Below are positions 2,210 through 63,399 of a DNA stretch of 64,000 bases, piece after piece. The DNA is from a virus (lineage: Duplodnaviria > Heunggongvirae > Uroviricota > Caudoviricetes). Numbering within the stretch: the stretch's first letter is position 1; the number at the start of each line of letters is the position of its first letter. Made by a program: the position numbers and the translations under genes. The notes under the pieces are model-generated. The model was not told the DNA's origin, searched no databases, and saw only the letters and a program-made list of their open reading frames with translations. The stretch is from the IMG/VR virus record IMGVR_UViG_3300033463_000077; one strand, given 5' to 3'.

Positions 2210-2250
2210 GTTGATATTATAATATAACACCGAAAATCAAAAAGTAAACC
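2210..2250 (-). promoter_or_regulatory. conserved early promoter motif copy
   Basis: motif match. Confidence 0.6.
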
Positions 2251-3006: not shown

Positions 3007-3435
3007 TTAAGCCTTCATGGGATCCGCGGCGATTTCCACAGCCTCATTGGTGACCGCATTCAAAGCTTCTTTCTCCGCCTTTTTCCGAGCCCGATACCGA
3101 CGGTTGGCTTCCGCCTTCCGGGCCTTCCGAGCGGCTTCCTTTTCCGCTTTCTCTTTCGCGGCCTTCCGGGCTTTTTCGACCTGGCGGCGGCAGGTCTCCT
3201 TGACCGCATTCGGCATTTCGATCTTTCCCTTGGAATTCCGCTTGAAGGTGATGTCCTTGAACAGGGTGCCGTCCTCGGTGGTGACGATAGCCTTCGGGGC
3301 GTCCTCAGCGGACAGATCGGCATCGGTCAGCTGATCCCGGACAGAGCGGAGGATGTTCCACATATTGGCCTCGGACTTGGCTTCGACAGTGGTGGTGTTG
3401 CCGCTGACGGTGGTGGTGATGGTGAGCTTTTTCAT
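3007..3435 (-). CDS. paralog family A basic-tail protein
   Basis: track ORF trimmed to MKKLTI start; KA/R-rich tail; own terminator 2951-2990. Confidence 0.6.
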   Translation of the reverse strand: MKKLTITTTVSGNTTTVEAKSEANMWNILRSVRDQLTDADLSAEDAPKAIVTTEDGTLFKDITFKRNSKGKIEMPNAVKETCRRQVEKARKAAKEKAEKEAARKARKAEANRRYRARKKAEKEALNAVTNEAVEIAADPMKA

Positions 3436-10721: not shown

Positions 10722-11120
10722 CTAAGGCTGGGCAACGGTTTCCCCAATGGTTTCCACCGCTCCCTCAGCGGCCTCCTTCTGAGCCTTCTTGCGGAGGCGG
10801 TACCGACGGTTGGCTTCAGCCTTCCGGGCCTTCCGAGCGGCTTCTTTCTCCGCCTTCTCTTTTGCGGCCTTCCGAGCCTTATCCATTTGACGGCGGCAGG
10901 TCTCCTTGACCAGGTTCACCATCTGAATCTTGTCCTTCACCACCTTGAAGACGATGTCCTTGAACAGGGTGCCGTCCTCAGTGGTGACCGTGGCATGCGG
11001 GGTGTCCTCGGCGACCTTTCCTTCGAGGCTGTCTCGGATCTCCCGGAGGTGGGTCCACATATTGGCCTCGGACCGGGCTTCGATGGTGCTGTCGGCGAAC
11101 TGAATGGTGAGCTTCTTCAT
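10722..11120 (-). CDS. paralog family A basic-tail protein
   Basis: ORF; near-identical N-terminus to 23010..23444; KA/R tail; terminator 10596-10640. Confidence 0.6.
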   Translation of the reverse strand: MKKLTIQFADSTIEARSEANMWTHLREIRDSLEGKVAEDTPHATVTTEDGTLFKDIVFKVVKDKIQMVNLVKETCRRQMDKARKAAKEKAEKEAARKARKAEANRRYRLRKKAQKEAAEGAVETIGETVAQP

Positions 11121-11519: not shown

Positions 11520-11909
11520 TCAGCAGTTCCGAAGATCCACTGTCACCTTTGGATTGGAGAAGGAAGAAGGATCCACACACTCAACAATCTTTTCCTCTCC
11601 TGTTTCCGGATTCACAAAGGTGATGGATCCACCTGTGCATTCCACATCCACAAGAAACCGGTCGGCATTGCGGAACTCTATTTTCCCCTTACGGTTAAGC
11701 TCAAAGGAGATTCTTTTGGGCATCCGATTTCCCAGCGGAGTACTTTCATCGGCGGAGACCTCAAGGATGGTCCCGTTGAGAAGATTCGGATCGGTTGTAT
11801 CACGGATCTCCCTGATCTTGGTCCAAGCCGCGGAAACGGACTTAACAGTAATATTCTCGTCAGAGAGACCGATATTGTCAGAGATTTTGGAAGTGAGCAG
11901 AGTGATCAT
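11520..11909 (-). CDS. hypothetical protein (129 aa), distant relative of family A N-domain without basic tail
   Basis: ORF; shares AAWTKIREIRD pattern; promoter 11929-11969. Confidence 0.5.
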   Translation of the reverse strand: MITLLTSKISDNIGLSDENITVKSVSAAWTKIREIRDTTDPNLLNGTILEVSADESTPLGNRMPKRISFELNRKGKIEFRNADRFLVDVECTGGSITFVNPETGEEKIVECVDPSSFSNPKVTVDLRNC

Positions 11910-27018: not shown

Positions 27019-27411
27019 TTACTCACCGGCGGCGACAGCCAGCTCCTGCGTATCCGCCAGAACATCCGCCATCTCAGCAACGGTGGCACCGGACGGGGCG
27101 ACCTCACCCTTCACCTTCTTGGCAGTCTTCGCCTTTACGGTCTTCTTCTCGCCCTTAGTCGGACGAACTCGATTGGTCTCCTTGACTGCATTCGGCATCT
27201 CGATCTTCCCCTTGGAATTGCGACGGAAAGTAATATCCTTAAACGGATTCCCGTCGGCATCAGTGACAACAGCACGAACACCGGCCTTCAGCTGTTCATC
27301 AGTGATTTCATCCCGAACCTTCCGCAGTGCATTCCACATTGCGCACTCGGACTTCACATCAGTGACAGTGGTTTCGGTACCCTTGGTAAGAGTGATCTTG
27401 AGCATCTTCAT
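27019..27411 (-). CDS. paralog family A (divergent; Lys/Val/Ala tail)
   Basis: ORF; SECAMWNALRKVRDE..FKDITFRRNSKGKIEMPNAVKETNR conserved; promoter 27448-27486. Confidence 0.55.
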   Translation of the reverse strand: MKMLKITLTKGTETTVTDVKSECAMWNALRKVRDEITDEQLKAGVRAVVTDADGNPFKDITFRRNSKGKIEMPNAVKETNRVRPTKGEKKTVKAKTAKKVKGEVAPSGATVAEMADVLADTQELAVAAGE

Positions 27412-29755: not shown

Positions 29756-29782
29756 ATAAATTAAAATAAGGAGAATGTGACA

Positions 29783-30901
29783 ATGATTTTCAGAAAATAT
29801 AGTGAAATTGAAAATTCTTACAATTCCAAATTTGTGAAGGTGCTCAGAGAGCAAGGTTTTGCTGATCCTTCCATTGAATATGTTTGTGAAAATAAAATTG
29901 ATGGAAGCAATGTTCAGGTTTCTATTGATGAACATGGACATTTCAATTTTGGTTCTCGTTCTCAGTTTTATCCAGCTCATTCTGATTTCCAGGGATCTAA
30001 GGTTTGTTTTATTAAAGAAAGAATCAAAGACAAACTGATTAGAATGAAAGAACTCATTGCAAAGGATCAGAAAGTAATTGATATTTTGAATAAACTTGCC
30101 GGGATTGATCCTGAAAAAGAAGATATTCAGAAGAAATTTATTCTTACTGTTTATGGAGAACTTTGTGGCGGAATGTATCGTCACCCGGATGTGGAAAAGG
30201 TAAAAGGTGCAATTAAAATTCAGGGCAGAGTTGATTATCACCCTGATAATAAGTTTGTTCCCTTTGATATTGTTCTTCGCTGGCCAAATGGTTCCACTAT
30301 TATGTTGTTTGATCAGGATGAAGTTGTGAAATATTGTAAAGAAGTTGATCTTCCTTATCCGATCATTTTGTTTAGAGGCACCTTTGATGAATGTCTTGAA
30401 TTTCCTGTTGAATTTGTTGATAAAACTGGTAACATTCTTTGGGGTCTTCCGATTATTGAAAACAATATCTCCGAAGGTATTGTTATCAAACCTAATAAAG
30501 CCTTATTCAAAGGAAATAAAGAAAGAGTTATTCTGAAAAAGAAAGGTGAAAGATTCAAAGAACGTATTTCTAAGAATAAAGAACCTAAAGAGGTTTTACC
30601 GATGAATGATGTGGAAAAGAAGTGGTTTGATACTATTTCTGAATTCGTCACTGAATCCCGTCTGATGAGTGTTCTCAGTAAAATAGATTGTACAAAGCTA
30701 AATGATAAATGCTTTGGTATGATTCTTGGAGCCTTCCTTAAAGATCTTTGGAATGATTTCAATAAGGAATATGAACAGGATATTGAAAAAGAACTTTCTG
30801 AAAATTCTGATTTCAATTTTGACAAAGTGAGGAAGGAAGCATCCAAATATGTTTCCAAATTCATTCAGCCTCATTTCCTTAAGCTTATTGGAAGAGCTTA
30901 A
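29783..30901 (+). CDS. RNA ligase 2 family (T4 Rnl2-like nucleotidyltransferase)
   Basis: N-terminus MIFRKYSEIENSYNSKF matches T4 Rnl2 MFKKYSSLENHYNSKF; motif I ENKIDGSN (KxDGxN). Confidence 0.8.
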   Translation: MIFRKYSEIENSYNSKFVKVLREQGFADPSIEYVCENKIDGSNVQVSIDEHGHFNFGSRSQFYPAHSDFQGSKVCFIKERIKDKLIRMKELIAKDQKVIDILNKLAGIDPEKEDIQKKFILTVYGELCGGMYRHPDVEKVKGAIKIQGRVDYHPDNKFVPFDIVLRWPNGSTIMLFDQDEVVKYCKEVDLPYPIILFRGTFDECLEFPVEFVDKTGNILWGLPIIENNISEGIVIKPNKALFKGNKERVILKKKGERFKERISKNKEPKEVLPMNDVEKKWFDTISEFVTESRLMSVLSKIDCTKLNDKCFGMILGAFLKDLWNDFNKEYEQDIEKELSENSDFNFDKVRKEASKYVSKFIQPHFLKLIGRA

Positions 30902-35558: not shown

Positions 35559-36002
35559 TCGGAAAACAAAATCCGATGCTGATTGAAAAATTTTATGACG
35601 TAGTAGCCCAAGGAGAGGCAGCGGCTCAGACGCCGCCAAAGTATTGGTTATACTCCAATCTACGTCCCCAATTTACGTTATCCGATGGACAGATTGGTTT
35701 AAGTTGATCTTGAGAATTAGTTTAAGAGTGAAAACATCCTACTGGATTTAGGAAAATGCATGGTGCAAGGTCCGGCATTCTCAGTTGCGTCAAGATAGGC
35801 AAATGGTCAGCCTAAGACGAGATTAATTTTAATCAATTTTCCAACGTTGTTAGAAGTCTGCAATAGTTTAACTAAAACAGTCGGACGGGATCCGATGATT
35901 CAGATCAGATTGCAACGAATTCTGATTGCAGTTACTTAGGTTTTCTTGAATGACCAATCAGGAATCCAAACAACAATGGATTACATCACCTTTTTTTTTT
36001 TC
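35559..36002 (+). ncRNA. ORF-free transcription unit (~440 nt), GCUGAUUGAAAA-leader ncRNA family member
   Basis: motif promoter 35521-35558, no ORF of 60 aa or longer, hairpin + T12 terminator at 35962-36002, long-range complementarity GACGUAG/CUACGUC. Confidence 0.45.
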
Positions 36003-36050: not shown

Positions 36051-36960
36051 CGGAAAACAAAATCCGATGCTGATTGAAAATTGAAAATTTCAGGTTGGTT
36101 ATAAAAATACCGATGTGATGCAAAAGATTAGCTACTTGAGAGACTGTCAGCTCAAAACAGTGGGAGACATCCTGAGATCATATCAATGGTGGTGTTGGTT
36201 AAAGTCCAATCATTGGTTCTTGTTATATTATAATCAATCCCGGAGAACTTCATCGTAAATATCCGGCAAGGTAAACCTTGAAAATGTTGAAAACGGTATT
36301 GAAATTAGATTGGTTATTGAAAAATAATCAAATCCCGGAGAACTTCATCGTAAATATCCGGCAATTGTTCAGCGATTGAAATGTTAAAAACGGTTAAGCC
36401 TGGAAATCAAAACCGGGCGATTCAATCGCCATTAAATGTGGCGATAGCTATCAGAGAACTGGAAGGTGTTTCGGTGAGATCACTGATCCTAAGGAAATGA
36501 ATAGTGGCAGATAGAAGGTTATATTGATTGATTTACTTCTTCTGTTGGAAGCAGCAAAATCCGTTGTAAGAGCGGTGCCTAGATAATCACAGAGATGATT
36601 ATCTAATTATTTAAAATTAAAATCAATCGAGGCAGTTGAGGAAATATAGATTCTGTCTCCCGGCTCTGATTGAGTCTGAAACTAAAGACCTCATAGATGA
36701 GGGTGATGTATTCAGCCGATGAAAAATCCGGTTAGGAGTCGCTGCAGAACTCCAAAACCTCACTTCAGAAGGAAACTGAAGGATCCGACATCCGGAAAAC
36801 AAACCAAATATTAATGAGCAGTGAAAAGGACTCCAACCTTCATCTGTTGACCGTGGATTACCTGGAAGCGGTCAGTCCTCTTGGAGCTTTTATTATGAGG
36901 ATTCGATTTACGGGGATGATTAAAGCCGAATGGGATTCCATCGGCCTTTTTCATTTTATA
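36051..36960 (+). ncRNA. large ORF-free transcription unit (~900 nt), GCUGAUUGAAAA-leader family; candidate large structured (ornate) RNA
   Basis: motif promoter 36013-36050, same leader as 35559, two 34-bp direct repeats, many local hairpins, no convincing ORF (track ORF 36814..36999 has no RBS and ends inside promoter). Confidence 0.4.
36236..36373 (+). repeat. two 34-bp direct repeats (AATCCCGGAGAACTTCATCGTAAATATCCGGCAA) ~104 bp apart inside large ncRNA region
   Basis: seen directly; each can form CCGGA..UCCGG hairpin. Confidence 0.65.
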
Positions 36961-36961
36961 G

Positions 36962-36999
36962 GTTTACTTTTTGAATTCAGCTGTTATATTAAAATATAA
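36962..36999 (+). promoter_or_regulatory. conserved early promoter motif copy
   Basis: motif match. Confidence 0.6.
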
Positions 37000-37024
37000 A
37001 GAAAGCATCAAAAGGAGAATTAAA

Positions 37025-37870
37025 ATGAAATATCTTATTCTTTCTGATTTACATATCTCTGTTGACTCTGTTACTTCTCAATTCAAACTTGAAAAATACA
37101 AAAGAATTTTAAAGAACAATTTACCTGAGAGTTATGATATCGTTCTTATTTCAGGTGATGTATTTGAACACAGAGTTCCACATTATGTAAATGTTTTTGA
37201 AACTCTGCAATACTTTTTTGATTTCAAACCGGCTGTTTTTTGTTTAGGGAATCATGAATTTGCTTATGAAGATCATGATTCTGTATTGAAAACTTACAAA
37301 GCTCAATATGAAGTTTTCAAGTCAAAATGGCCTAATGGATCGGTTTGTTGTCTTGATATTTCAGGATATTATGATTTTGATAATGCCAGAATTGTTGGAA
37401 ATGTATTTTGGTATGATTGGTCTTTAAATCATTGCAGAACTTTAATGAAAGGTGAAATTGTTGATGGTTGGTTGGATGCAACTATTGAAAATTTCGATGC
37501 AATGAAAGAACATGAAAATTGTAAAAAACAAATCATGAATTCTCTTTCTGAAGAGAAGAATCATATTCTTTTGACTCACACTGTTCCTTATGAAAAGTTG
37601 AATATGTTTAGTATTGAAGAACCAAATTCTCCATACAATTCTTATTCAGGGTGTGCGGACTTTTTGAATGAGATCAAAGATAAAAACTTTAAGTTTGCAT
37701 TTTGTGGTCATACTCATAAAAAAGCAAATTTAGAAGTATATGATATCAATTGTTTGAACATTGGAAATGATTATTATTTCAAAACATTCAGAATTGATTG
37801 GGCGCTTTTTGATATGGACAAAGATTTGAATATTTTTAATATTCTATTCAGTAAACAGTTTACTTTTTGA
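37025..37870 (+). CDS. calcineurin-like metallophosphoesterase
   Basis: MPP motifs DLH, ISGDVFEH (GDxxD), GNHE, LLTHTVPY, CGHTHKK; start MKYLIL after RBS AAAAGGAGAATTAAA. Confidence 0.7.
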   Translation: MKYLILSDLHISVDSVTSQFKLEKYKRILKNNLPESYDIVLISGDVFEHRVPHYVNVFETLQYFFDFKPAVFCLGNHEFAYEDHDSVLKTYKAQYEVFKSKWPNGSVCCLDISGYYDFDNARIVGNVFWYDWSLNHCRTLMKGEIVDGWLDATIENFDAMKEHENCKKQIMNSLSEEKNHILLTHTVPYEKLNMFSIEEPNSPYNSYSGCADFLNEIKDKNFKFAFCGHTHKKANLEVYDINCLNIGNDYYFKTFRIDWALFDMDKDLNIFNILFSKQFTF

Positions 37871-37897: not shown

Positions 37898-37916
37898 AAT
37901 GAGAGGAGAATTAAAA

Positions 37917-38524: not shown

Positions 38525-38607
38525 GCCAGTGTAGCTCAGCGGTAGAGCTGCCGAAAAGGCTAAACCAGAGATGGTGAAGGTCGGAGGTTCGAGCCCTCCC
38601 ACTGGCT
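38525..38607 (+). tRNA. tRNA-like gene with normal acceptor, D and T arms but a 34-nt anticodon/variable region; isotype undetermined
   Basis: acceptor GCCAGUG/CACUGGC, D GCUC-AGCGGUA-GAGC, T GGAGG-UUCGAGC-CCUCC; central region GCCGA...UCGG does not form a canonical 17-nt anticodon arm. Confidence 0.5.
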
Positions 38608-38625
38608 ATTCAGCATTTTTTATAG

Positions 38626-38662
38626 TTTACTTTTTGAATTTTAATGTTATATTCAAATATAC
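38626..38662 (+). promoter_or_regulatory. conserved early promoter motif copy
   Basis: motif match. Confidence 0.6.
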
Positions 38663-38684
38663 AACAACAATTGAGGAGATTAAA

Positions 38685-38930
38685 ATGAAAGTTCCGCCTA
38701 TTCCTTCCTTTCCTTTCAGAGTTATTGAAATGAATGCCGATAAATCCATTGGTTTGCTGACAACTGATGGATTTGGATGTCATTACATTTGGATGAATGG
38801 AAGAGCCAATGAGATCAGTGATTATGAAGTTAGAAAAGACCGGGAAAAAGCTTTGGCTTTGTTCAAAAAACTTTGTGCCGAACATGAAATCGATGAAATG
38901 AAAAGAACTGGAACCGTTTTAGCTGGATGA
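38685..38930 (+). CDS. hypothetical protein (81 aa)
   Basis: track ORF trimmed to MKVPPIPSF after RBS GAGGAGATTAAA. Confidence 0.5.
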   Translation: MKVPPIPSFPFRVIEMNADKSIGLLTTDGFGCHYIWMNGRANEISDYEVRKDREKALALFKKLCAEHEIDEMKRTGTVLAG

Positions 38931-39666: not shown

Positions 39667-39705
39667 GTTTACTTTTTGAATTCAGGTGTTATATTATAAT
39701 ATGAA
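39667..39705 (+). promoter_or_regulatory. conserved early promoter motif copy
   Basis: motif match. Confidence 0.6.
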
Positions 39706-40841: not shown

Positions 40842-41795
40842 ATGAATAATGATAAACTGATCAAGATGTTCAAAGACCTTTCCCTTTATGAAGAATCTTT
40901 GAAACGGCATTTTCCTTCCAAAGCATATTTGAATGCAATTTCCACAATCAAAAAATTGCCCTTTGATATTACTGATGTTGAACAGGTCAAAGGGCTTTCT
41001 GGTTTTGGAAAGGGCCTTATTGAAAAAGTTGAATCTTTCTTGAAAACAGGGAGCTTTAAACGATATGAAGAATTCAAAAGATCAGATTTTGCCAAACTTA
41101 TTGAGATTTCAAACATTAAAGGAATTGGAGTCAATAAAGCGAAAGAGCTCGCGGCAGCTGGAATCAAAAGTCTTGAAGAGCTTAAAGAAGCGGTTAAAGA
41201 ACTTAATATTGGGGATATGATTGGAACCTCCGCAGTTAAGTATATCAACTCTATCAAAGTTGGTCTTCAGTTTGAAGCTCATACTGAAAAGACCAGAATG
41301 ACCATTCAAGAACATGATGAGATTGCTGATCCTATTATTGTAGATTTGCTCAGGAAACATGCAAATATTCTTGTTTCCTTCGCGGGCTCTAGAAGGCGGT
41401 GGAACCAGCTTGATCAGAATTACACCGTAGGCGATATCGACATCATTATAGGTGTTCCGGAAAGTGAATTGAATACCTTTTATAAGAATCTTCCCCAGTA
41501 TCTTGATGAAGTTGTTATGAATGGCCAGACCAAAGTTTCCGGAATTAAGAACAAAAGACAGATTGACTTCAGAATTGTCAACAGAGATAATTATGGTGCA
41601 CTGCTTCTCCATGCAACCGGCCCTATGAATTGGAATATCAAACTCAGAAAAATTGCGATCAGCAAAAATATGATTCTCAATGAGTATGGACTTTTTGAAA
41701 GAGATACAAGAAAACTTATTGCATCCACTGAAGAAGATATTGTATACACTTTGATCGGCACCTATATCCCAGCTGATAGAAGGGATAATTTTTGA
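40842..41795 (+). CDS. DNA polymerase family X (Pol beta-like nucleotidyltransferase)
   Basis: HhH IKGIGVNKAKEL; catalytic GSRRRWNQLDQNYTVGDIDIII (GSxRRG..GDxDxLL pattern); YGALLLHATGPMNWN; C-term EEDIVYTLIGTYIPADRRD. Confidence 0.7.
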   Translation: MNNDKLIKMFKDLSLYEESLKRHFPSKAYLNAISTIKKLPFDITDVEQVKGLSGFGKGLIEKVESFLKTGSFKRYEEFKRSDFAKLIEISNIKGIGVNKAKELAAAGIKSLEELKEAVKELNIGDMIGTSAVKYINSIKVGLQFEAHTEKTRMTIQEHDEIADPIIVDLLRKHANILVSFAGSRRRWNQLDQNYTVGDIDIIIGVPESELNTFYKNLPQYLDEVVMNGQTKVSGIKNKRQIDFRIVNRDNYGALLLHATGPMNWNIKLRKIAISKNMILNEYGLFERDTRKLIASTEEDIVYTLIGTYIPADRRDNF

Positions 41796-46095: not shown

Positions 46096-46124
46096 AATAA
46101 TTGAAAATTAAAGGAGACAAATAT

Positions 46125-47990
46125 ATGAGCCGCATCCAAGAACTTGAAGCTGAAATCCGTCATCACAATGATCTTTATTGGAATGGAAAAGATCTTGAAA
46201 TTTCTGATATTGAATATGATGCTCTTTGTCGAGAACTTGCTGAGCTTGATCCTGACAATGAGCTTATTCTGAATTTTGGAAAGAAAGATTTGACTGGAAA
46301 CGAAAAGCTTATCAAGCACTCCAAAAAGATGTTGAGTCTTGGAAAGATTTATTCCAAAGAAGACCTGCTTAAATGGGTTAAAAAAGTTTCCAGAACCAAT
46401 CAAGAAGAATTTCTTATTCAGCCGAAATATGATGGAATGTCCGGACTTTTGGAAAATGGGACTCTTAGTTCACGTGGTGATGGTGAATATGGTCAGGATT
46501 ATACTGATAAACTGAAGTTGATTGAATTTGATACTGATAAGAAGATTGATCCAAGTCGTGATAGTCTACTTGGAGAGATTATAATCAAAAACAGTTATTT
46601 CAAAAGCATCTTTGGTGAAGTGAAGTCAAAATCTGGTATTCCGTTTAAGAATCAACGAAACGGAATTGCCGGTATTCTTGGAACCGATGATGTGGACTTC
46701 TATTACAATCAGGGTGCGAAAATTACTTTTGTTGATTACGACAAAGAATCCACTACTACAAATTGCTTCCACTTTTCTGAAGCATGGGATGCTGTTGTAG
46801 ATCACATTCTTAAGAATACTGATTATCCTCTTGATGGTATCGTGATTAAGCTCAAAGATCAAGCATATGCCGAATCTCTTGGATATACTACTCATCATCC
46901 TCGTGGAGCTGTAGCATTCAAATTTACAAATCAGACTGCTGTATCAAAACTTATTGATGTTGAGTGGGGAATGGGAAAACAGCAGATTTCAGCTGTTGGT
47001 GTTATTGAGCCTGTTGAAATTTCTGGAACTACTATTCGAAGAGTTAAGCTTCAGCTTACAAAGCCAAAGAGTTCCGCTGTTGAAACTTGTCTGATTGATG
47101 GAAGCCTTCAGATAGGTGATACGGTGGTAGTTGAACGCGCTGGAGATATTATTCCTCATATCATTTCCTCCAAACCAGGTGTGAATAGAAAGAGAGTTTA
47201 TATTGATAAATGTCCTTTCTGTGGATCTGATACTTTCATTAATGAAACAAGTGTTCAGTGTGGAGCCTTAAATGGAAGATGCATTGAAACTGAAGTTCAG
47301 GAGCTTTATTGCTCCATCGTTACTCTTGGATTTAAGAATGTTGGTGAAGCCTATATCAGACTTATTGTTAATGATCCTAATCTTAAAGTTCGTTACATTG
47401 CCGATCTCTTTGATCTGAAGCCTGAAGATATGAAGCTGAAAGAATATGGAACTCGTAAGAAAGAAATTTTCTTTGAAGAGATTGAAAAAGCAAAAAAGAA
47501 TGCAACAAAAGATATGGTTCTCGCTTCAATGAATATTCCTACTGTTGGAAAAACTGTATCAAAAATTATTGTAGAGAACTTCAACTGGGAAGATGTTATT
47601 GAAGGAAGATTTGATTCTCACGATTATGAAAAAGTCGATGGAATTGGACATATAATTGCCGATTCACTTGAAACATACTTAGGTCCTGGATCTTGGGCCA
47701 CTGACAATCTTCGTAGAATGTCCGCAATATTTTCATTCAAGAAAGTTGAAAAGAAATCTGAAAATTCAAATGGAATGACAATTTGTTTCACAGGAAAAAT
47801 GGAAAATAAAAGATCAGTTATGGAACAGATTGCAAAAGATCGTGGATTCACTCCTATGGATCATGTTGATAAGAATCTTTCCATTTTGGTTTGTGCAGAT
47901 CCTAACAGTGGTTCCGGAAAACTTCAGAAGGCTGCTAAGTACGGAACAAGAATCATTTCTGAAAAAGATTTCATGGATGGAAAATATTAA
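46125..47990 (+). CDS. ligA: NAD-dependent DNA ligase
   Basis: N-terminal Ia domain ELEAEIRHHNDLYWNGKDLEISDIEYDALCRELAELD, adenylation motif I QPKYDGMSG, Zn-finger CPFCGS...C, C-terminal BRCT; start MSRIQELE after RBS AAAGGAGACAAATAT. Confidence 0.85.
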   Translation: MSRIQELEAEIRHHNDLYWNGKDLEISDIEYDALCRELAELDPDNELILNFGKKDLTGNEKLIKHSKKMLSLGKIYSKEDLLKWVKKVSRTNQEEFLIQPKYDGMSGLLENGTLSSRGDGEYGQDYTDKLKLIEFDTDKKIDPSRDSLLGEIIIKNSYFKSIFGEVKSKSGIPFKNQRNGIAGILGTDDVDFYYNQGAKITFVDYDKESTTTNCFHFSEAWDAVVDHILKNTDYPLDGIVIKLKDQAYAESLGYTTHHPRGAVAFKFTNQTAVSKLIDVEWGMGKQQISAVGVIEPVEISGTTIRRVKLQLTKPKSSAVETCLIDGSLQIGDTVVVERAGDIIPHIISSKPGVNRKRVYIDKCPFCGSDTFINETSVQCGALNGRCIETEVQELYCSIVTLGFKNVGEAYIRLIVNDPNLKVRYIADLFDLKPEDMKLKEYGTRKKEIFFEEIEKAKKNATKDMVLASMNIPTVGKTVSKIIVENFNWEDVIEGRFDSHDYEKVDGIGHIIADSLETYLGPGSWATDNLRRMSAIFSFKKVEKKSENSNGMTICFTGKMENKRSVMEQIAKDRGFTPMDHVDKNLSILVCADPNSGSGKLQKAAKYGTRIISEKDFMDGKY

Positions 47991-49073: not shown

Positions 49074-49640
49074 ATGAACATTATATTTTTAGACATGGAT
49101 GGAGTAATAAACTCCGGTGAAATACAAAAAGAATGGGTAAAAAAGAATGGATTCTCTAAAGAATCTAGGGATGCATTTATCAAAAAATATTGTTTGAATA
49201 CAAAATTTCCATTTTATTATATTGTTCCAGAACTTCTAAATAGATTTAATGAAATGTATTCAAAAATTCCAAATTGTAGAGTTGTTTGGTCTTCTTCCTG
49301 GAGATTAACAGCTAAAAAAGAATCAAAATTATTTGTTGAAGGCCTATACTATAAATGCGGTTTTCCTAATGGAAGTTTTATTGGTTATACTTCACATATG
49401 CCACATCTTTTAAGATATAATGAAATAGAAGATTGGATTAAAACATTTAAAGATGTTTATCAAATTGATAAATGTGCAATCATTGATGATCTTTATGAAG
49501 CATCATTAGGAGTTGATGAATTTCTCGGAATACCAATAAAATTTTTTCAGACATCTGGACATCATGGCTTAACGGAAGAAATAGCAAATAATATTGTAAA
49601 GTATTTTGAGGAGATAAATGAAAAAGATGAAAATAAATGA
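49074..49640 (+). CDS. HAD-superfamily phosphatase (5'(3')-nucleotidase / polynucleotide 3'-phosphatase-like)
   Basis: HAD motif I IIFLDMDGVIN at N-terminus; later CAIIDD acidic motif. Confidence 0.6.
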   Translation: MNIIFLDMDGVINSGEIQKEWVKKNGFSKESRDAFIKKYCLNTKFPFYYIVPELLNRFNEMYSKIPNCRVVWSSSWRLTAKKESKLFVEGLYYKCGFPNGSFIGYTSHMPHLLRYNEIEDWIKTFKDVYQIDKCAIIDDLYEASLGVDEFLGIPIKFFQTSGHHGLTEEIANNIVKYFEEINEKDENK

Positions 49641-51283: not shown

Positions 51284-51661
51284 TTAAAGAATGATACGAA
51301 GTTGACCCGTTGTTTCAAGATGAGGAATTTTTTCTGATTTCCATGAGTTCAATAAAATAAGTTCATATCTTTTTGAAAATTTAGGAAGAATTCTTCCGGT
51401 AAATACTGAAGACATTTTTGTAATATAAATGATTACAGATGTTTCCTTTTTGATAACATTAAGATCAAGCTTTTCTACAAGTAACTTTATAAATTCTTGA
51501 GCAATAAATGTATCATGTCCAATTCCTCTGAAGAATTTCTTTGATGTGAAAAGATCAATATTATTATATGTTCCTTGGAAATCTTTGTCAATATACTTTG
51601 GATTGACACTATAAGCTTCCATAATAATATCATTTAATTCTTGATTAAACTGATTTAACAT
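51284..51661 (-). CDS. hypothetical protein (125 aa), minus strand within plus arm, no SD
   Basis: clean ORF flanked by bidirectional terminator; weak -10-like TATTTAT directly upstream of ATG (possibly leaderless). Confidence 0.4.
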   Translation of the reverse strand: MLNQFNQELNDIIMEAYSVNPKYIDKDFQGTYNNIDLFTSKKFFRGIGHDTFIAQEFIKLLVEKLDLNVIKKETSVIIYITKMSSVFTGRILPKFSKRYELILLNSWKSEKIPHLETTGQLRIIL

Positions 51662-52608: not shown

Positions 52609-53016
52609 ATGAATTTGATTTTAATCATTGGAGTTCCTGGCTCAGGAAAAACCACATTAGCAAAAAAGCTTCAGAAAGAAAGACTTGAAGATTATAAAAT
52701 TTTTGAAGCTGATATGTTCTTTGAAAGAAACGGAAAATATGATTGGAATCCTAAACTTTTGGGAGCCGCTCATAAATGGTGTTATAATCAAGTTGAAAAT
52801 GCTTTGAAAAATGGGGAGTCAGTAATTGTTTCCAATACATCTTTAATTCCTCGTGACAGAAAACCTTATATTGAACTTGCAAAGAAATATGGAGCAAATA
52901 TTGAAGTATTCACTTGTGAAGGAAATTATCAAAATGTTCACAATGTGCCTAATGAAACAATCGAAAGAATGAAGCAAAAATTTGTCCCTTACTCAAAAAA
53001 TGAGGAAAATTTTTGA
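52609..53016 (+). CDS. P-loop polynucleotide 5'-kinase-like protein (T4 Pnk kinase-domain-like)
   Basis: Walker A IIGVPGSGKTT resembles T4 Pnk ILTIGCPGSGKST; GESVIVSNTSLIPRDRKPYIELAKKYGANIEVF resembles Pnk VKGVIISDTNLNPERR..FAKEYGWKVEHKVF. Confidence 0.6.
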   Translation: MNLILIIGVPGSGKTTLAKKLQKERLEDYKIFEADMFFERNGKYDWNPKLLGAAHKWCYNQVENALKNGESVIVSNTSLIPRDRKPYIELAKKYGANIEVFTCEGNYQNVHNVPNETIERMKQKFVPYSKNEENF

Positions 53017-55052: not shown

Positions 55053-55382
55053 ATGGGAATGTCAGCTGAAAATGATAATGTGAGTTTTGCAGAACAGCAG
55101 GAAAATTTGAAGCGAGAGGCTGCAAGAAAGGCCGCGGAGAAGAAAGTTCCGTGTTATTCAGTTCTTGGTTCCATTTATTTGAAAGACAAATGTTATCAGC
55201 TTCTTGTTGGTGAAGATAAGAAGTGGTATAAAGCTGAATGGCTGAGAAGTGAAAGAATTGATGAAAAGAATCGTTCTCCGCTGGTTGATGTTTATTCAGA
55301 TGAAATCACTCCACTTACTAAAGAAGAATTTGATTATTATTTTCATGGGAAAGATGTTGTAAAAAAGAAAAAGAAGGGTTAA
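55053..55382 (+). CDS. hypothetical protein (109 aa)
   Basis: ORF, RBS GAAGGAGAAAATAAATT. Confidence 0.5.
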   Translation: MGMSAENDNVSFAEQQENLKREAARKAAEKKVPCYSVLGSIYLKDKCYQLLVGEDKKWYKAEWLRSERIDEKNRSPLVDVYSDEITPLTKEEFDYYFHGKDVVKKKKKG

Positions 55383-55399
55383 AATTATAAATATACAAG

Positions 55400-55730
55400 A
55401 AGAGAAATCTTCGTGCTGATTGAAAACTGTTTATTGGTTATTTTGTAATTGAAATTGTTATCCTATAACAGATACCAATTTTAGATGTTCTCAATTTTCC
55501 ATACTTTGCAAATACCGGAAGATGAGCCTTAAAGCAAAGGTTTCCTAAAGTTGGGTAAAAGGTTTCCCTCGGTTTTGAAAATCGGGTAAAGCTAGCAAAT
55601 TTTGAAATATTTGTTATAGATGAGCACCTCTTAATCGCGGAGAACAAATTAGGAGTTTTTATTTTGTCCTATTATCCTCACTGATGAACAGTTTTCCGGT
55701 CCCAGTTGATTGCAACACTGGGACTTTTTT
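55400..55730 (+). ncRNA. ORF-free transcription unit (~320 nt), GCUGAUUGAAAA-leader family
   Basis: leader motif at 55414-55425; no ORF; terminator GGUCCCAGU..ACUGGGAC + U6 at 55698-55730. Confidence 0.4.
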
Positions 55731-55739
55731 AGTAAAAAG

Positions 55740-55780
55740 GGTTTACTTCATATAAAAGAATGTTACATTATAATATTCAG
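55740..55780 (+). promoter_or_regulatory. promoter motif copy (variant)
   Basis: GGTTTACTTCATATAAAAGAATGTTACATTATAATAT. Confidence 0.45.
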
Positions 55781-55808
55781 TTTAATCTTTAATTAGAAAA
55801 AGGAAAAC

Positions 55809-56345
55809 ATGCAGATTTATTTCAAAAGCAAAGATGGATTTGTTGATGAGCCTTTTAGCTTCAGCAAATACGGAAACAAAAAATTTCAAGTTGTTGGAGA
55901 TCATTACAACACTGGAACAAATCGCTTTGGATATGAAGCGGTAAAGCAGGCGAATGAAGAGAGCGGATTGGATGTTCTGCTTTTAAATGATAAATCTGAA
56001 GTATTCATAATTAAATTTCTTGACATTCAGAAGTTCCTTTATGAACAGAAAAAGGCAAGGAAGGAACAGGAAAAGAAACAGAAAGCTTCTCAGCAAAAAC
56101 TGAAAGAAATTAAATTTCATATGAATATTGCTGAGAATGATTTGAAGACCAAAGTTGAACATGTCAAAAAGTTTCTTGAAGAAAATTGCAAAGTTAAAGT
56201 TGTTCTTGAACTTCGTGGAAGAGAAGTTGGAATGAAAGATTATGCAAAAGAAGTTTGGGAAAATATAATTTCAAATTTTGCTGAATATCAAATCAGTGAA
56301 AAGAAAGAAATGGGAAATTCATATTTTGTGTTTATCACGAAGTAA
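55809..56345 (+). CDS. translation initiation factor IF-3 homologue (full length, 178 aa)
   Basis: C-domain KEIKFHMNIAENDLKTKVEHVKKFLEENCKVKVVLELRGREVGMKDYAKEV aligns with bacterial IF3 [51 protein letters not shown]; N-domain LDVLLLNDKSEVFIIKFLDIQKFLYEQKK resembles [29 protein letters not shown]. Confidence 0.65.
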   Translation: MQIYFKSKDGFVDEPFSFSKYGNKKFQVVGDHYNTGTNRFGYEAVKQANEESGLDVLLLNDKSEVFIIKFLDIQKFLYEQKKARKEQEKKQKASQQKLKEIKFHMNIAENDLKTKVEHVKKFLEENCKVKVVLELRGREVGMKDYAKEVWENIISNFAEYQISEKKEMGNSYFVFITK

Positions 56346-56460
56346 AAAGAATTATTTTAATAATAAATTTTTGGTAACTCAATGCATTACCTAAGTTCGG
56401 ATTGGAATAAGCCGATTGCCTGAAATGGTTGTAATGTATTAGGCATAAACTGAGTTATAT

Positions 56461-56538
56461 ACTCCGGTAGCTCAGTTGGTTATGAGCAAATGCCTTATAA
56501 GCATTGGGTCGGTGGTTCAAATCCACCCCGGAGTACCA
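56461..56538 (+). tRNA. tRNA-Ile (anticodon TAT)
   Basis: manual cloverleaf: acceptor ACUCCGG/CCGGAGU, anticodon stem AAUGC/GCAUU, loop CUUAUAA, T GGUGG-UUCAAAU-CCACC, CCA encoded. Confidence 0.75.
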
Positions 56539-56544
56539 GGATTT

Positions 56545-56582
56545 TTCAAAGGTGATTGTAGGAATACTTTCACCTTTTTTAT
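56545..56582 (+). terminator. rho-independent terminator after tRNA-Ile
   Basis: AAAGGUGA..UCACCUUU + UUUUAUUUAC. Confidence 0.55.
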
Positions 56583-56619
56583 TTACTTTTCAAATTTTTC
56601 TGTTATATTAGAAATATAC
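56582..56619 (+). promoter_or_regulatory. conserved early promoter motif copy
   Basis: motif match. Confidence 0.55.
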
Positions 56620-56636
56620 GGAAAGGAAATCTAGAT

Positions 56637-56870
56637 ATGGACATTAAAGAATTCATTAAGAAATATAATCTTTCAGAAGAAGCTGAGGCTGATCTGAATT
56701 CAATTCTTGAAAAATGGGGAAATGATAATTTTGAATTTTTGAAAATTTTGATAAAAGATTTTGAATTCAGATCAAAATTAACTAAACCTCAAAAATTTGT
56801 TAATTGTAATGGTTGGCTTTTTGAAATGCCTGACGATATTGAAGCTTTTGAAAAATTAAAAGGAGAATAA
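56637..56870 (+). CDS. hypothetical protein (77 aa)
   Basis: ORF, RBS AAAGGAAATCTAGAT. Confidence 0.5.
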   Translation: MDIKEFIKKYNLSEEAEADLNSILEKWGNDNFEFLKILIKDFEFRSKLTKPQKFVNCNGWLFEMPDDIEAFEKLKGE

Positions 56871-56873
56871 ATC

Positions 56874-58106
56874 ATGTTTAGAAACTTTGTTAAAGAATAT
56901 TTGAATGAACCTGGAAAAAACCTTGATACTCTAAAAGAAGAGTTTGGTATTTCTTATCGTATTTTCAATGCAAAGAATGGAGATCTTGTCATTCTTTCTT
57001 ATTCTCAGATTGATTCTCCAAAAACCAATCCGATCGTTAGGATGTGTCGTGGATTGGTTCTTGAGATGAATACTTGGGACATTGTTTCCTATCCTTTTTA
57101 TCGTTTTTACAATTTTGAAGAAGTTCCAGAAGAACGTCTGAAATTCAATTGGAAGAAAGCAATGGCTACTGAAAAAATTGATGGTTCATTGCTGGAAGTC
57201 TTTAATTACAAAGGTGAATGGCTTATTTCCACCCGTTCAATGATCGGTGGAGAAAATGCAGTTAATGCTTTGGGTACTACGGTTAATGATATTTTTGATA
57301 TGGCAATTTCTCCAATGACTCGTAAGGAATTCTTTGAAAGACTTATTCCAAATATTTCTTATATTTTTGAAATTGTCAGTCCTTTCAATCAAATCGTTAC
57401 TCAGTGGGATGCCGCTCATCTTTATTTGATTGGTGGAAGAAGCAAAACTTTTAATGAAGAAGAATATACTTTTATCGATCTTTATGATTTGTTTGATTCT
57501 GCAATGAAAAACATTGTTAGAATTCCTAAAGTCATTTCTCTTTATGATAAAGAATCTGATGACTTTGTTGGATTTGAAAAAATGAAGATGCTTGCGGAAA
57601 CTGGAAATTCTCAGGATGAAGGTTTTGTTGTGGTGGATTTTGACAGTCTTGATAAAACTACCAATTCCTTTCCGAGAGTGAAAGTTAAAAATTCTGCTTA
57701 TGTTGCTCTTCATCATTTGAGAGGTTCTTTGGAGAATGGAGCTCCGCAATATGAAAGAATTCTTACTTTGATTTACAATAAAGAAGATGCAGAAGTTCTT
57801 TCTAATCTTCCTCATATGAAGCCTTACTTTGATGAAGTCAAAGAAAAGTTTAATAAATTCCTTGAAGAGTTTAATTCTGATTTGAAATTGATTGAAGCTG
57901 AATTGAATGATCCTCAGAAATTTATTGATCATCCTGAATTGAAGAAAGATTTTGCAATGAAGATCAAAGATTCAAAATATAAGAATTTGTTTTTCTTCAT
58001 GCTGAAGTCTTGTACCAAAACTTTCAATGAAATGGTTGATTATCAGATCAGCAAGTCAGTTGATGTTTTTGATAAACTTTGGGACTCTTATATTTCCAAG
58101 ATGTAA
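56874..58106 (+). CDS. RNA ligase 1 family (T4 Rnl1/RnlA-like)
   Basis: SYRIFNAKNGDLVILSYSQ..RMCRGLVLE..YRFYNFEE..EKIDGSL aligns with T4 Rnl1 TYRIFSYNYASYSDW..ECRGIMFE..MEKFFNLNE..TKEDGSL (motif I KxDGSL). Confidence 0.75.
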   Translation: MFRNFVKEYLNEPGKNLDTLKEEFGISYRIFNAKNGDLVILSYSQIDSPKTNPIVRMCRGLVLEMNTWDIVSYPFYRFYNFEEVPEERLKFNWKKAMATEKIDGSLLEVFNYKGEWLISTRSMIGGENAVNALGTTVNDIFDMAISPMTRKEFFERLIPNISYIFEIVSPFNQIVTQWDAAHLYLIGGRSKTFNEEEYTFIDLYDLFDSAMKNIVRIPKVISLYDKESDDFVGFEKMKMLAETGNSQDEGFVVVDFDSLDKTTNSFPRVKVKNSAYVALHHLRGSLENGAPQYERILTLIYNKEDAEVLSNLPHMKPYFDEVKEKFNKFLEEFNSDLKLIEAELNDPQKFIDHPELKKDFAMKIKDSKYKNLFFFMLKSCTKTFNEMVDYQISKSVDVFDKLWDSYISKM

Positions 58107-58430: not shown

Positions 58431-58507
58431 GGGGCCATAACTCAGTTGGCTAGAGTAGCATCCTTTTAAGATGCGAGTCGGCGGTTCGAATCCGCCTGGC
58501 CCCACCA
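58431..58507 (+). tRNA. tRNA-Lys (anticodon TTT)
   Basis: manual cloverleaf: acceptor GGGGCCA/UGGCCCC, anticodon stem GCAUC/GAUGC, loop CUUUUAA, T GGCGG-UUCGAAU-CCGCC, CCA encoded. Confidence 0.8.
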
Positions 58508-60478: not shown

Positions 60479-60521
60479 AAGAGATATAAATAATAAAGAA
60501 AAATGTTATAATAAAATTATT

Positions 60522-60609
60522 GGAGAGGTGGCTGAGTTGGTTTAAGGCAGCGGTCTCGAAAACCGCCGGAGTCGCAAGGCTCCCGAGGGTTCGAATCCCT
60601 CCCTCTCCG
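60522..60609 (+). tRNA. tRNA-Ser (anticodon CGA), class II
   Basis: manual fold: acceptor GGAGAGG/CCUCUCC, anticodon stem GCGGU/ACCGC, loop CUCGAAA, long variable arm GGAGUC-GCAA-GGCUCC, T GAGGG-UUCGAAU-CCCUC. Confidence 0.8.
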
Positions 60610-60635
60610 AAAACTTTAATGGAGCAAATAAAAAA

Positions 60636-63360: not shown

Positions 63361-63399
63361 TTTACTTTTTGAATTCCGCTGTTATATTATAATATCGAA
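63361..63399 (+). promoter_or_regulatory. conserved early promoter motif copy
   Basis: motif match. Confidence 0.6.

Follow-up and report, generated by a model that had tools for sequence, protein, structure and literature searches.

A divergent initiation factor IF3 homologue from a probable large-phage genome region, with an ATG start codon and glutamine at the position of arginine 25

Bacterial translation initiation factor IF3, the product of infC, consists of two domains (PF05198 and PF00707; equivalog TIGR00168) joined by a lysine-rich linker helix, for which 5LMN chain X and 8JSG serve as structural references. The gene lies in the thrS-infC-rpmI-rplT operon, and its start codon, which is AUU or AUC in all bacteria, is the target of autoregulation (PMC5499595). 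Arginine 25 (E. coli numbering, as used below for conserved positions) has been described as invariant and as touching the elbow of the initiator tRNA; with the R25A mutant, neither non-canonical start codons nor the 3GC-mutant initiator tRNA are again discriminated against (PMC9723500). Ribosome and mRNA contacts of the C-domain are placed at D106, K110 and the "RFRGR" loop (R129-R133) (PMC3401457, PMC11775629), and a mutation of R112 in E. coli IF3 is reported to disrupt ribosome binding severely (PMC3401457). The mitochondrial factor IF-3mt has extensions at both ends and KKGK in place of RFRGR, and is a precedent for proofreading that has been retuned by terminal extensions and an altered RFRGR motif (PMC11775629).

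The presence of IF3 in huge and jumbo phages has already been reported (PMC7162821, PMC7824862, PMC11895373), with the comment that the function of the phage protein cannot be stated (PMC11895373); no functional experiment on any phage-encoded IF3 was found in the literature searched. The described examples, which are represented by PHROG 9787, come from Agrobacterium phage Atu_ph07 (AUZ94813.1), Pectobacterium phage CBB (AMM43881.1), Salmonella phage Munch (AZU98288.1) and an uncultured huge phage (LR756504). They are full-length, begin with ATG or GTG, and stand alone outside any ribosomal-protein operon; in CBB, Munch and Atu_ph07 the neighbours are ClpS or Clp genes. At stake is whether a phage IF3 tops up a limiting host factor or actively redirects ribosomes. 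The IF3 family described here offers a clean test of that question, as it is well conserved, has lost the autoregulatory start codon, and has a change at a residue with a published phenotype (R25, which is Gln27 in this protein). Should it behave like an ordinary IF3, it would be a routine addition to the translation genes of large phages.

The DNA analyzed, hereafter "the window", is a stretch of 64,000 nucleotides from a viral record of the IMG/VR collection (IMGVR_UViG_3300033463_000077). A first-pass annotation, made from the sequence alone, had proposed that one of its open reading frames encodes a full-length IF3 homologue, and the Pfam, NCBIfam and PHROG profiles, the PDB matches and a structure model all agree with that proposal; the coordinates, strand, length and ATG start (Table 1) are exactly as it gave them. 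The two Pfam profiles that it had put forward as a check both score above their curated gathering cut-offs: IF3_C with an E-value of 2.7e-19 and 69.3 bits (cut-off 34.8) over residues 97-167 of the phage protein, and IF3_N with an E-value of 1.3e-6 and 28.9 bits (cut-off 26.9) over residues 43-87, which correspond to profile positions 27-70 only. The infC equivalog TIGR00168 scores 91.0 bits against a curated cut-off of 60 (residues 42-166), and PHROG 9787, "translation initiation factor", aligns residues 44-167 with positions 31-155 of its 168 (E 3.4e-26, 93.1 bits). Sequence comparison with proteins of known structure gives Thermus IF3 (5lmn_X; E 4e-19, 72.5 bits) and E. coli IF3 (8jsg_A; E 6e-18, 68.6 bits). 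The phage protein shares with these bacterial factors the two-domain architecture, the lysine-rich linker helix and the length class (178 amino acids, compared with 180 in E. coli and 171 in Thermus, as the annotation had remarked), but is only 27-29% identical to either. IF-3mt (6RW4 chain 8) is a weak match in both sequence and fold, with an E-value of about 5e-3.

The pass of the IF3_N domain is marginal by sequence, but is supported by the structure model, since the model supplies the missing first strand (residues 25-29) and its superposition on 5lmn_X spans 156 columns. This AlphaFold model, for which the input was 52 aligned sequences, has a mean pLDDT of 89.1 and links both domains by a long helix. 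Its best Foldseek match is 5lmn_X, that is, IF3 as bound on the 30S subunit (E 2.7e-12, TM 0.73/0.77, rmsd 2.6 Å), and its C-domain, composed of strand 98-104, helix 109-124, strand 128-134, helix 143-157 and strands 166-168 and 171-177, aligns with 1tig at a TMt of 0.79. The peptides that the first-pass annotation had quoted for the N-domain, linker and C-domain all occur in the translation, and their domain assignments hold. The open reading frame encodes a genuine two-domain IF3 of the bacterial type. Where E. coli IF3 has a Lys/Arg-rich N-terminal segment, the phage protein instead has a structured β-hairpin; this extension lies outside the Pfam IF3_N match, is kept across the family, and is also present in the more distant relatives P0093 and P0096.

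Table 1. Coordinates of the IF3 gene, its domains and flanking signals, and of other features of the window
Feature	Coordinates	Strand	Basis
Candidate structured non-coding RNA	55415..55735	+	Conservation, fold, consensus structure
Intrinsic terminator (hairpin and T-run) at end of upstream transcription unit	55702..55730	+	Sequence; compensatory stem changes in L098 and L003
Promoter copy of IF3 gene: GTTTACTT (55741-55748), 12 nt, TGTTACATTATAATAT (55761-55776)	55741..55776	+	Motif search, consensus
Partial Shine-Dalgarno AAGGA, 4 nt before ATG	55800..55804	+	Sequence
IF3 homologue, coding sequence (178 aa and TAA; ATG start)	55809..56345	+	ORF listing, sequence, Pfam, NCBIfam, PHROG and PDB matches, structure model, dN/dS
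Family-specific N-terminal extension, residues 1-24	55809..55880	+	AlphaFold: β-hairpin 2-7/10-15 and short helix, block pLDDT 86-88
IF3 N-domain core, residues 25-72	55881..56024	+	Strand 25-29, helix 42-52, strands 55-58 and 65-71; Pfam, model, Foldseek
Lys-rich linker helix 73-94 (coordinates reach residue 96)	56025..56096	+	Model, residue map, charge count
IF3 C-domain, residues 97-178	56097..56342	+	β-α-β-α-β-β fold; Pfam, PDB matches, model, Foldseek
tRNA-Ile (anticodon UAU), 115 nt downstream of IF3 gene	56461..56538	+	tRNA found; adjacency kept in relatives
T4-type RNA ligase 1 (Rnl1)	56874-58106		
RNA ligase 2 (Rnl2)	29777-30901		
Metallophosphoesterase	36971-37870		
Family X polymerase	40842-41795		
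NAD-dependent DNA ligase	46101-47990		
HAD_SAK_2 RNA-repair phosphatase	49074-49640		
P-loop polynucleotide-kinase-like protein	52609-53016		

At least 29 full-length or near-full-length relatives with 50-94% identity were recovered in a search of 5.8 billion proteins, after which identity drops to 36%. The family members come from metagenomic, phage-like contigs that are syntenic with the window (as seen in L003-L008 and L100); contigs of this family reach 80-106 kb in public assemblies. When 1.84 billion cluster representatives were searched exhaustively with HMMER, 5,367 IF3 relatives were obtained; in the library clustered at 50% the phage family is a single representative, and the next representatives beyond it fall off steadily, with 42-52% identity to the query in the alignment. 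Compared with the 94%-identical copy in contig L005, the gene has a dN/dS of about 0.10 and is thus under purifying selection. The earlier remark that a phage-borne IF3 is uncommon is borne out by the 25 of 50,697 phage records that match at E <= 1e-3 and by the BFVD structure collection, which holds only three viral IF3-like structures; among those 25 records at least one (H4) is a host thrS-infC-rpmI-rplT operon beside a prophage integrase, and a second (H5) is probably likewise. The jumbo and huge phage proteins named above are 25-31% identical to the window's IF3, which, unlike them, carries the N-terminal hairpin, and has tRNA-Ile and Rnl1 rather than Clp genes for neighbours. The window's IF3 is a new and divergent addition to the phage IF3s already reported.

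No cellular IF3 was found above about 40% identity to the phage protein. Inference of a host from IF3 similarity was attempted with a genome scan that returned almost only Bacteroidales, and was rejected as an artefact of the seed peptide (QKFLYEQK) used; in phmmer comparisons the Bacteroidales IF3s score 58-62 bits, lower than those of E. coli (68.6) and Thermus (72.5). The strong use of Shine-Dalgarno (SD) sequences by the phage, and its σ70-type promoters, are also at odds with Bacteroidetes.

Mapping onto the E. coli factor shows K72, Y75, K79, D106, K110, R131, G132, R133 and E134 to be invariant in the family, Tyr75 (Tyr78 of the phage protein) lying at the start of the linker, the net charge of which is +4 compared with +5 in E. 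coli. Substituted positions are R25 (to Gln), R99 (His), Y107 (Leu), R112 (Glu/Asp), R129 (Glu) and R168 (Asn). Aspartate or glutamate occupies the R112 position in most family members. Glutamate occupies the R129 position in 29 of 29, and the loop reads ELRGR in the phage IF3, with the RGR that is not found in the KKGK of IF-3mt; of the terminal extensions of IF-3mt, the phage protein has the N-terminal one only. Loss of overall basic charge was considered as a sign of lost rRNA binding and rejected, as each domain has a net charge in the range that other IF3s show. Most of the altered C-domain positions also vary among bacterial IF3s, with Thermus having Gly at 112 and Met at 129, and, these positions being variable and the domain charges normal, the residues of the phage protein give no sign of lost ribosome binding. 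Its affinity for the 30S subunit could nevertheless be reduced, because Asp or Glu stands at the R112 position, mutation of which disrupts binding by the E. coli factor (PMC3401457); Thermus has Gly there.

The substitution at the Arg25 position, occupied by Gln27, appears to be a property of the whole family. Glutamine is found in all 27 family members that have a residue in this column of the alignment. Arginine is the residue in 123 of the 158 other IF3s in which the column is occupied, and in each of the five other phage IF3s that were aligned (L001, L002, which is LR756504, Atu_ph07, CBB and Munch). This mapping depends on the alignment and on strand 25-29 of the model, the N-terminal part of the N-domain being too diverged for Pfam. 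Glutamine in place of Arg25, together with acidic side chains where E. coli has Arg112 and Arg129, suggests that stringency, or the dwell time on the 30S subunit, is unlike that of the host factor. The phage gene has the sequence and fold of an IF3, but lacks three features of cellular infC, namely Arg25, the AUU/AUC start and the operon context; in place of thrS, rpmI and rplT it has ORFans, tRNA-Ile and Rnl1 around it.

The start codon is well defined. The frame is closed by a TAG five codons before the ATG (55794-55796), and the only codons in between are AAA AAG GAA AAC, with no ATT, ATC, GTG or TTG, so no alternative start of the gene is possible. Of the IF3 genes inspected on phage and phage-like contigs, 13 of 13 have a canonical start (ATG, GTG or TTG). 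Among cellular Bacteroidota infC loci, three (L032, L033 and L091) offer only ATC or ATA, and one (L017) has an in-frame ATG upstream. With canonical starts, the phage copies would thus have escaped the AUU/AUC autoregulation to which bacterial infC is subject. The promoter copy assigned to the gene lies 33 nt upstream of it, departs by one mismatch from a consensus found across the window, and is also reported by a scan for σ70-type sites. A scan of 55300-56900, with the spacer inspected by eye, detected no plus-strand terminator-like site between the IF3 stop codon and the tRNA-Ile(UAU) gene. This tRNA also follows IF3 in L005-L008, and the order IF3, tRNA-Ile(UAU), Rnl1 is maintained even in L100/L104, a lineage with 55% identity.

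That consensus was recognized from a 16-nt motif, TGTTATATTNNAATAT, which has 130 matches in the whole window (both strands, two mismatches allowed) compared with 1.9 expected. A longer consensus, GTTTACTTTTTgaat-N5-TGTTATATTa.AATAT, is common to about 100 oriented copies and can be read as TTTACT in the role of a -35 element, separated by 16 nt from an extended -10 element (TGtTATATT). The copies point leftward in 1-28 kb and rightward in 25-64 kb, matching the orientation of the genes, and most are followed within the next 15-35 nt by an SD and ATG. Most genes of the window are short ORFans; the exceptions include the ligases, repair enzymes and other proteins of Table 1, of which the T4-type Rnl1, Rnl2 and the NAD ligase match PHROGs, and eight or nine tRNAs are scattered over the window, none of them an initiator tRNA. 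Comparison of 40 neighbouring ORFs with Pfam found no IF1, S21 or other translation factor. With some 100 shared promoter copies, short ORFans, RNA ligases and repair enzymes, and tRNAs, the window looks like an early-type region of a large phage. Stop-codon recoding had been suspected from short, overlapping ORFs in the first 28 kb, and was set aside on finding that the longer frames obtained by reading through TGA crossed promoter and SD elements that recur between genes; many short genes read in the standard code are the better fit.

The phage origin of the IF3-carrying contig is strongly suggested but not proven, as the window contains no capsid, tail, terminase or other structural or packaging gene, and scans of a viral contig collection turned up no relative: with the IF3 protein the lineage was not found, and with the promoter consensus there was one unrelated match only. 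Among deposited phages, megablast gave no match for positions 46-64 kb, and the tblastn matches of the DNA ligase and of Rnl1 did not exceed 34% identity. Sample names hint at a possible ruminant gut source.

Most genes, 41 of 53 on the plus strand and 36 of 49 on the minus strand, have an SD core 4-17 nt before the ATG, compared with 12% of background ATGs, and starts with a linked SD are nearly all ATG. The first-pass annotation had supposed that the phage factor might bias selection toward phage messages that are leaderless or lack an SD. The window does not favor this idea, as most of its genes have a strong SD with ATG and a near-leaderless placement of ATG was seen only once among about 100 promoter copies, at 37899. 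Excess bacterial IF3, moreover, is reported to inhibit initiation on leaderless messages, not to promote it (PMC11775629). The gene at 51284-51661, offered in support, does lack an SD, but is an isolated case.

We consider it the best account of these observations, with a probability of roughly 0.6, that the gene provides an early, phage-made IF3 that is free of autoregulation, binds the host 30S subunit, and upholds IF3 activity during takeover of the cell. Host RNA polymerase would most likely transcribe the gene early, from one of the approximately 100 near-identical σ70-type promoters; this timing we infer from the resemblance of the promoter to the σ70 consensus only. As the message starts with AUG, production of the protein should not be throttled by IF3 itself. 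Like host IF3, the factor is expected to bind at the platform of host 30S subunits, since the core of the C-domain, the basic linker and Tyr75 are all retained. There it would supply anti-association, recycling and proofreading of initiation complexes while host expression is being shut down, and IF3 activity would be maintained or raised during takeover. A surplus of IF3 would probably cost phage messages little, because nearly all of those in the window have a strong SD and AUG, yet it would penalize weaker or non-canonical initiation. Binding to the 30S subunit, as well as any effect on the choice of messages translated, is what the sequence leads us to infer.

Alternatively, the residue map could be taken to mean that the factor displaces host IF3 and relaxes proofreading, through a weakened contact with the tRNA elbow (Gln for Arg25) and the change of RFRGR to ELRGR, so that phage messages could be initiated from unusual start codons or with unusual initiator tRNAs, or their subunits joined faster. 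The glutamine is specific to the family and invariant within it; in E. coli, R25A and a triple mutant of the N-terminal domain raise initiation from AUU/AUA and with the 3GC-mutant tRNA (PMC9723500), and conversion of RFRGR to KKGK, or terminal extensions, relax discrimination (PMC11775629), which is of interest for a family with Glu at R129 and an N-terminal extension. However, R131, G132 and R133 are retained, glutamine is still able to hydrogen-bond to the phosphate backbone, and genes that are almost exclusively ATG with a strong SD have no evident need of relaxed fidelity, nor does the window encode an initiator tRNA; we regard such altered specificity as unlikely. A more elaborate form of this thought, in which a retuned IF3 and the candidate RNA upstream of its gene, with its SD-like GGAG loop, work together as a phage module for the capture of host 30S subunits and for altering the range of messages or initiator tRNAs accepted, derives from the absence of the near-universal Arg25 contact and the presence of the extra N-terminal hairpin, and is best treated as speculation with a slim chance of being correct.

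Placement of the gene among tRNAs and RNA-repair genes of a counter-defense type, and the reversal of charge at two mapped C-domain arginine positions (PMC3401457), might instead indicate a protein of host shutoff, one that is not a general initiation factor but occupies 30S subunits unproductively, or that acts as a substitute or decoy when a defense inactivates the cellular IF3. Such a role seems improbable: in a pure inhibitor there would be no call to conserve both domains together with the linker and the proofreading loop, and the phage's own messages also require initiation. We know of no defense system that targets IF3. As for a passenger without a role in infection, be it infC acquired from a host not long ago, host sequence flanking a prophage or an assembly error, there is precedent in a Vibrio "phage" hit that proved to be host thrS-infC-rpmI-rplT beside an integrase. 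The locus described here has no cellular neighbours and no rpmI-rplT, however, and is at most about 40% identical to any cellular IF3 (even Bacteroidales copies reach only 58-62 bits); it has at least 29 orthologues in syntenic contigs, kept under purifying selection, and starts with ATG behind a copy of the promoter motif that belongs to the phage itself. The passenger reading is effectively refuted by these features.

A further feature of this region is the 320-nt segment that precedes the IF3 promoter (55415-55735), which has the look of a structured RNA. Wherever DNA ahead of IF3 is available (L005, L007, L098 and the L003/L100/L104 lineage), the segment is conserved, at 95.7% identity to L005, compared with 91.8% for IF3 itself, and conserved blocks remain even where IF3 identity within the family is down to 55-60%. 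The segment folds better than shuffled controls (z -3.4), and its consensus fold comprises a closing helix of 17 bp, a hairpin whose conserved loop, CGCGGAGAACAA, displays the SD-like GGAG, and the terminator; in four sequences, double changes occur in 21 of the 66 pairs of this fold. No Rfam family matches the non-coding regions of the window that were searched, this candidate RNA included. Its 5' module, made up of a promoter, a small hairpin and GCUGAUUGAAAA, recurs in four further non-coding units of the window.

The candidate structured RNA that precedes the phage IF3 gene is present in all members of the IF3 family having upstream DNA to inspect, and between the window and L005, the contig with the closest relative, it is 95.7% identical, compared with 91.8% for IF3 itself. 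The window copy has a minimum free energy z-score of -3.4. A consensus fold comprises a 17-bp closing helix, a hairpin and then an intrinsic terminator, with compensatory changes in the stems; the conserved hairpin loop, CGCGGAGAACAA, contains a GGAG that resembles a Shine-Dalgarno sequence. The window copy has no match in Rfam.

The RNA upstream of IF3 is one of five transcription units of the window that have in common a 5' module, in which a promoter is accompanied by a small hairpin and by the 12-mer GCTGATTGAAAA. No convincing ORF lies downstream of the module in any of the five, and none of them matches an Rfam family. The set takes in a stretch of about 900 nt (36069-36970), inside which a CCGGAGAAC...TCCGG hairpin occurs twice; the leader of a tRNA-like gene and that of tRNA-Lys also belong to it. 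The sequence CGGAGAAC occurs 6 times, where 0.92 occurrences are expected.

One promoter consensus, GTTTACTTTTTgaat-N5-TGTTATATTa.AATAT, is common to about 100 oriented copies across the whole window, and the 16-nt core alone has 130 matches against 1.9 expected. The copies point leftward in 1-28 kb and rightward in 25-64 kb; the divergent blocks join near 25-28 kb, and the GC skew changes sign at the same place. Six small early proteins of 129-144 aa, all encoded on the minus strand, form one paralogous family with a common N-terminal domain (e.g., KSE.xMWN.LR.VRD ... NSKGK.EMPN), and three of the four paralogues inspected have tails rich in Ala, Arg and Lys. These tails are probably the source of the GC-rich patches (40-50% GC) in 1-13 kb and, probably also, of the spurious overlapping ORFs in that interval.

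Coordinates of features in the window and, where indicated, in related contigs
Feature	Position	Strand	Remarks
Promoter copy (example)	2214-2229	-	
Promoter copy (example)	39687-39702	+	
Promoter copy (example)	63380-63395	+	
Paralogous early-protein genes	1758-2183, 3007-3435, 10722-11120, 11520-11909, 23010-23444, 27019-27411	-	
343-aa protein gene	19616-20647	-	many CxxC pairs; C-terminal DUF559 / MTES_1575 endonuclease-like domain
Units with common 5' module	35578, 36069, 55415, 58161, 59299	+	
tRNA-like gene	35597-35670	+	ARAGORN; four-base anticodon 'caga'
tRNA-like gene	38525-38607	+	detected by Rfam only; 83 nt, 45 bits
Candidate structured RNA	55415-55735	+	~320 nt; directly 5' of IF3 promoter
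Candidate structured RNA, L005	9609-9927		
Candidate structured RNA, L098	22-352		
Candidate structured RNA, L003	8098-8425		
tRNAs near IF3	56461-56538, 58431-58507, 60521-60610	+	

Downstream of IF3 (56346-56538 vs. 10538-10723 of L005), identity to L005 is 60% in the spacer between IF3 and the tRNA and 71% in tRNA-Ile, down from 92-96%, a drop that suggests a recombination breakpoint just 3' of the IF3 gene. In L007, another contig of the family, a 366-aa ORF with a weak match to Phage_endo_I is inserted 3' of the tRNA. Elsewhere in the window, the gene for the 343-aa protein adjoins tRNA-Pro and tRNA-Asn, and its product is possibly a homing endonuclease.

The tRNAs adjoining IF3 do not match local codon usage: across 29 genes of the region, AUA makes up 9% of Ile codons and UCG 1% of Ser codons. 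These tRNAs may serve late genes, or may stand in for host tRNAs that anticodon nucleases have cleaved; the latter role would be consistent with the nearby repair genes for Rnl1 and Rnl2 (T4-type RNA ligases), kinase and phosphatase. As to the two odd tRNA-like genes, the one with the four-base anticodon is not reported by Rfam at gathering score; in the other, the anticodon arm seems to hold a long insert, and the ATG of an ORF (38571-38930) falls within this gene.

The 'translation initiation factor' annotated in Vibrio phage Va_90-11-286_p16 (MK672802.1, 24416-27763; a 41-kb record) lies within a thrS-infC-rpmI-rplT operon that adjoins an integrase, and is most likely host DNA taken in at a prophage boundary rather than a phage IF3. 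The infC start region on a contig labelled Ruminococcus flavefaciens MAG is identical, over the stretch inspected, to its counterpart in a Bacteroides sp. MAG of the same study, which points to mis-binning.
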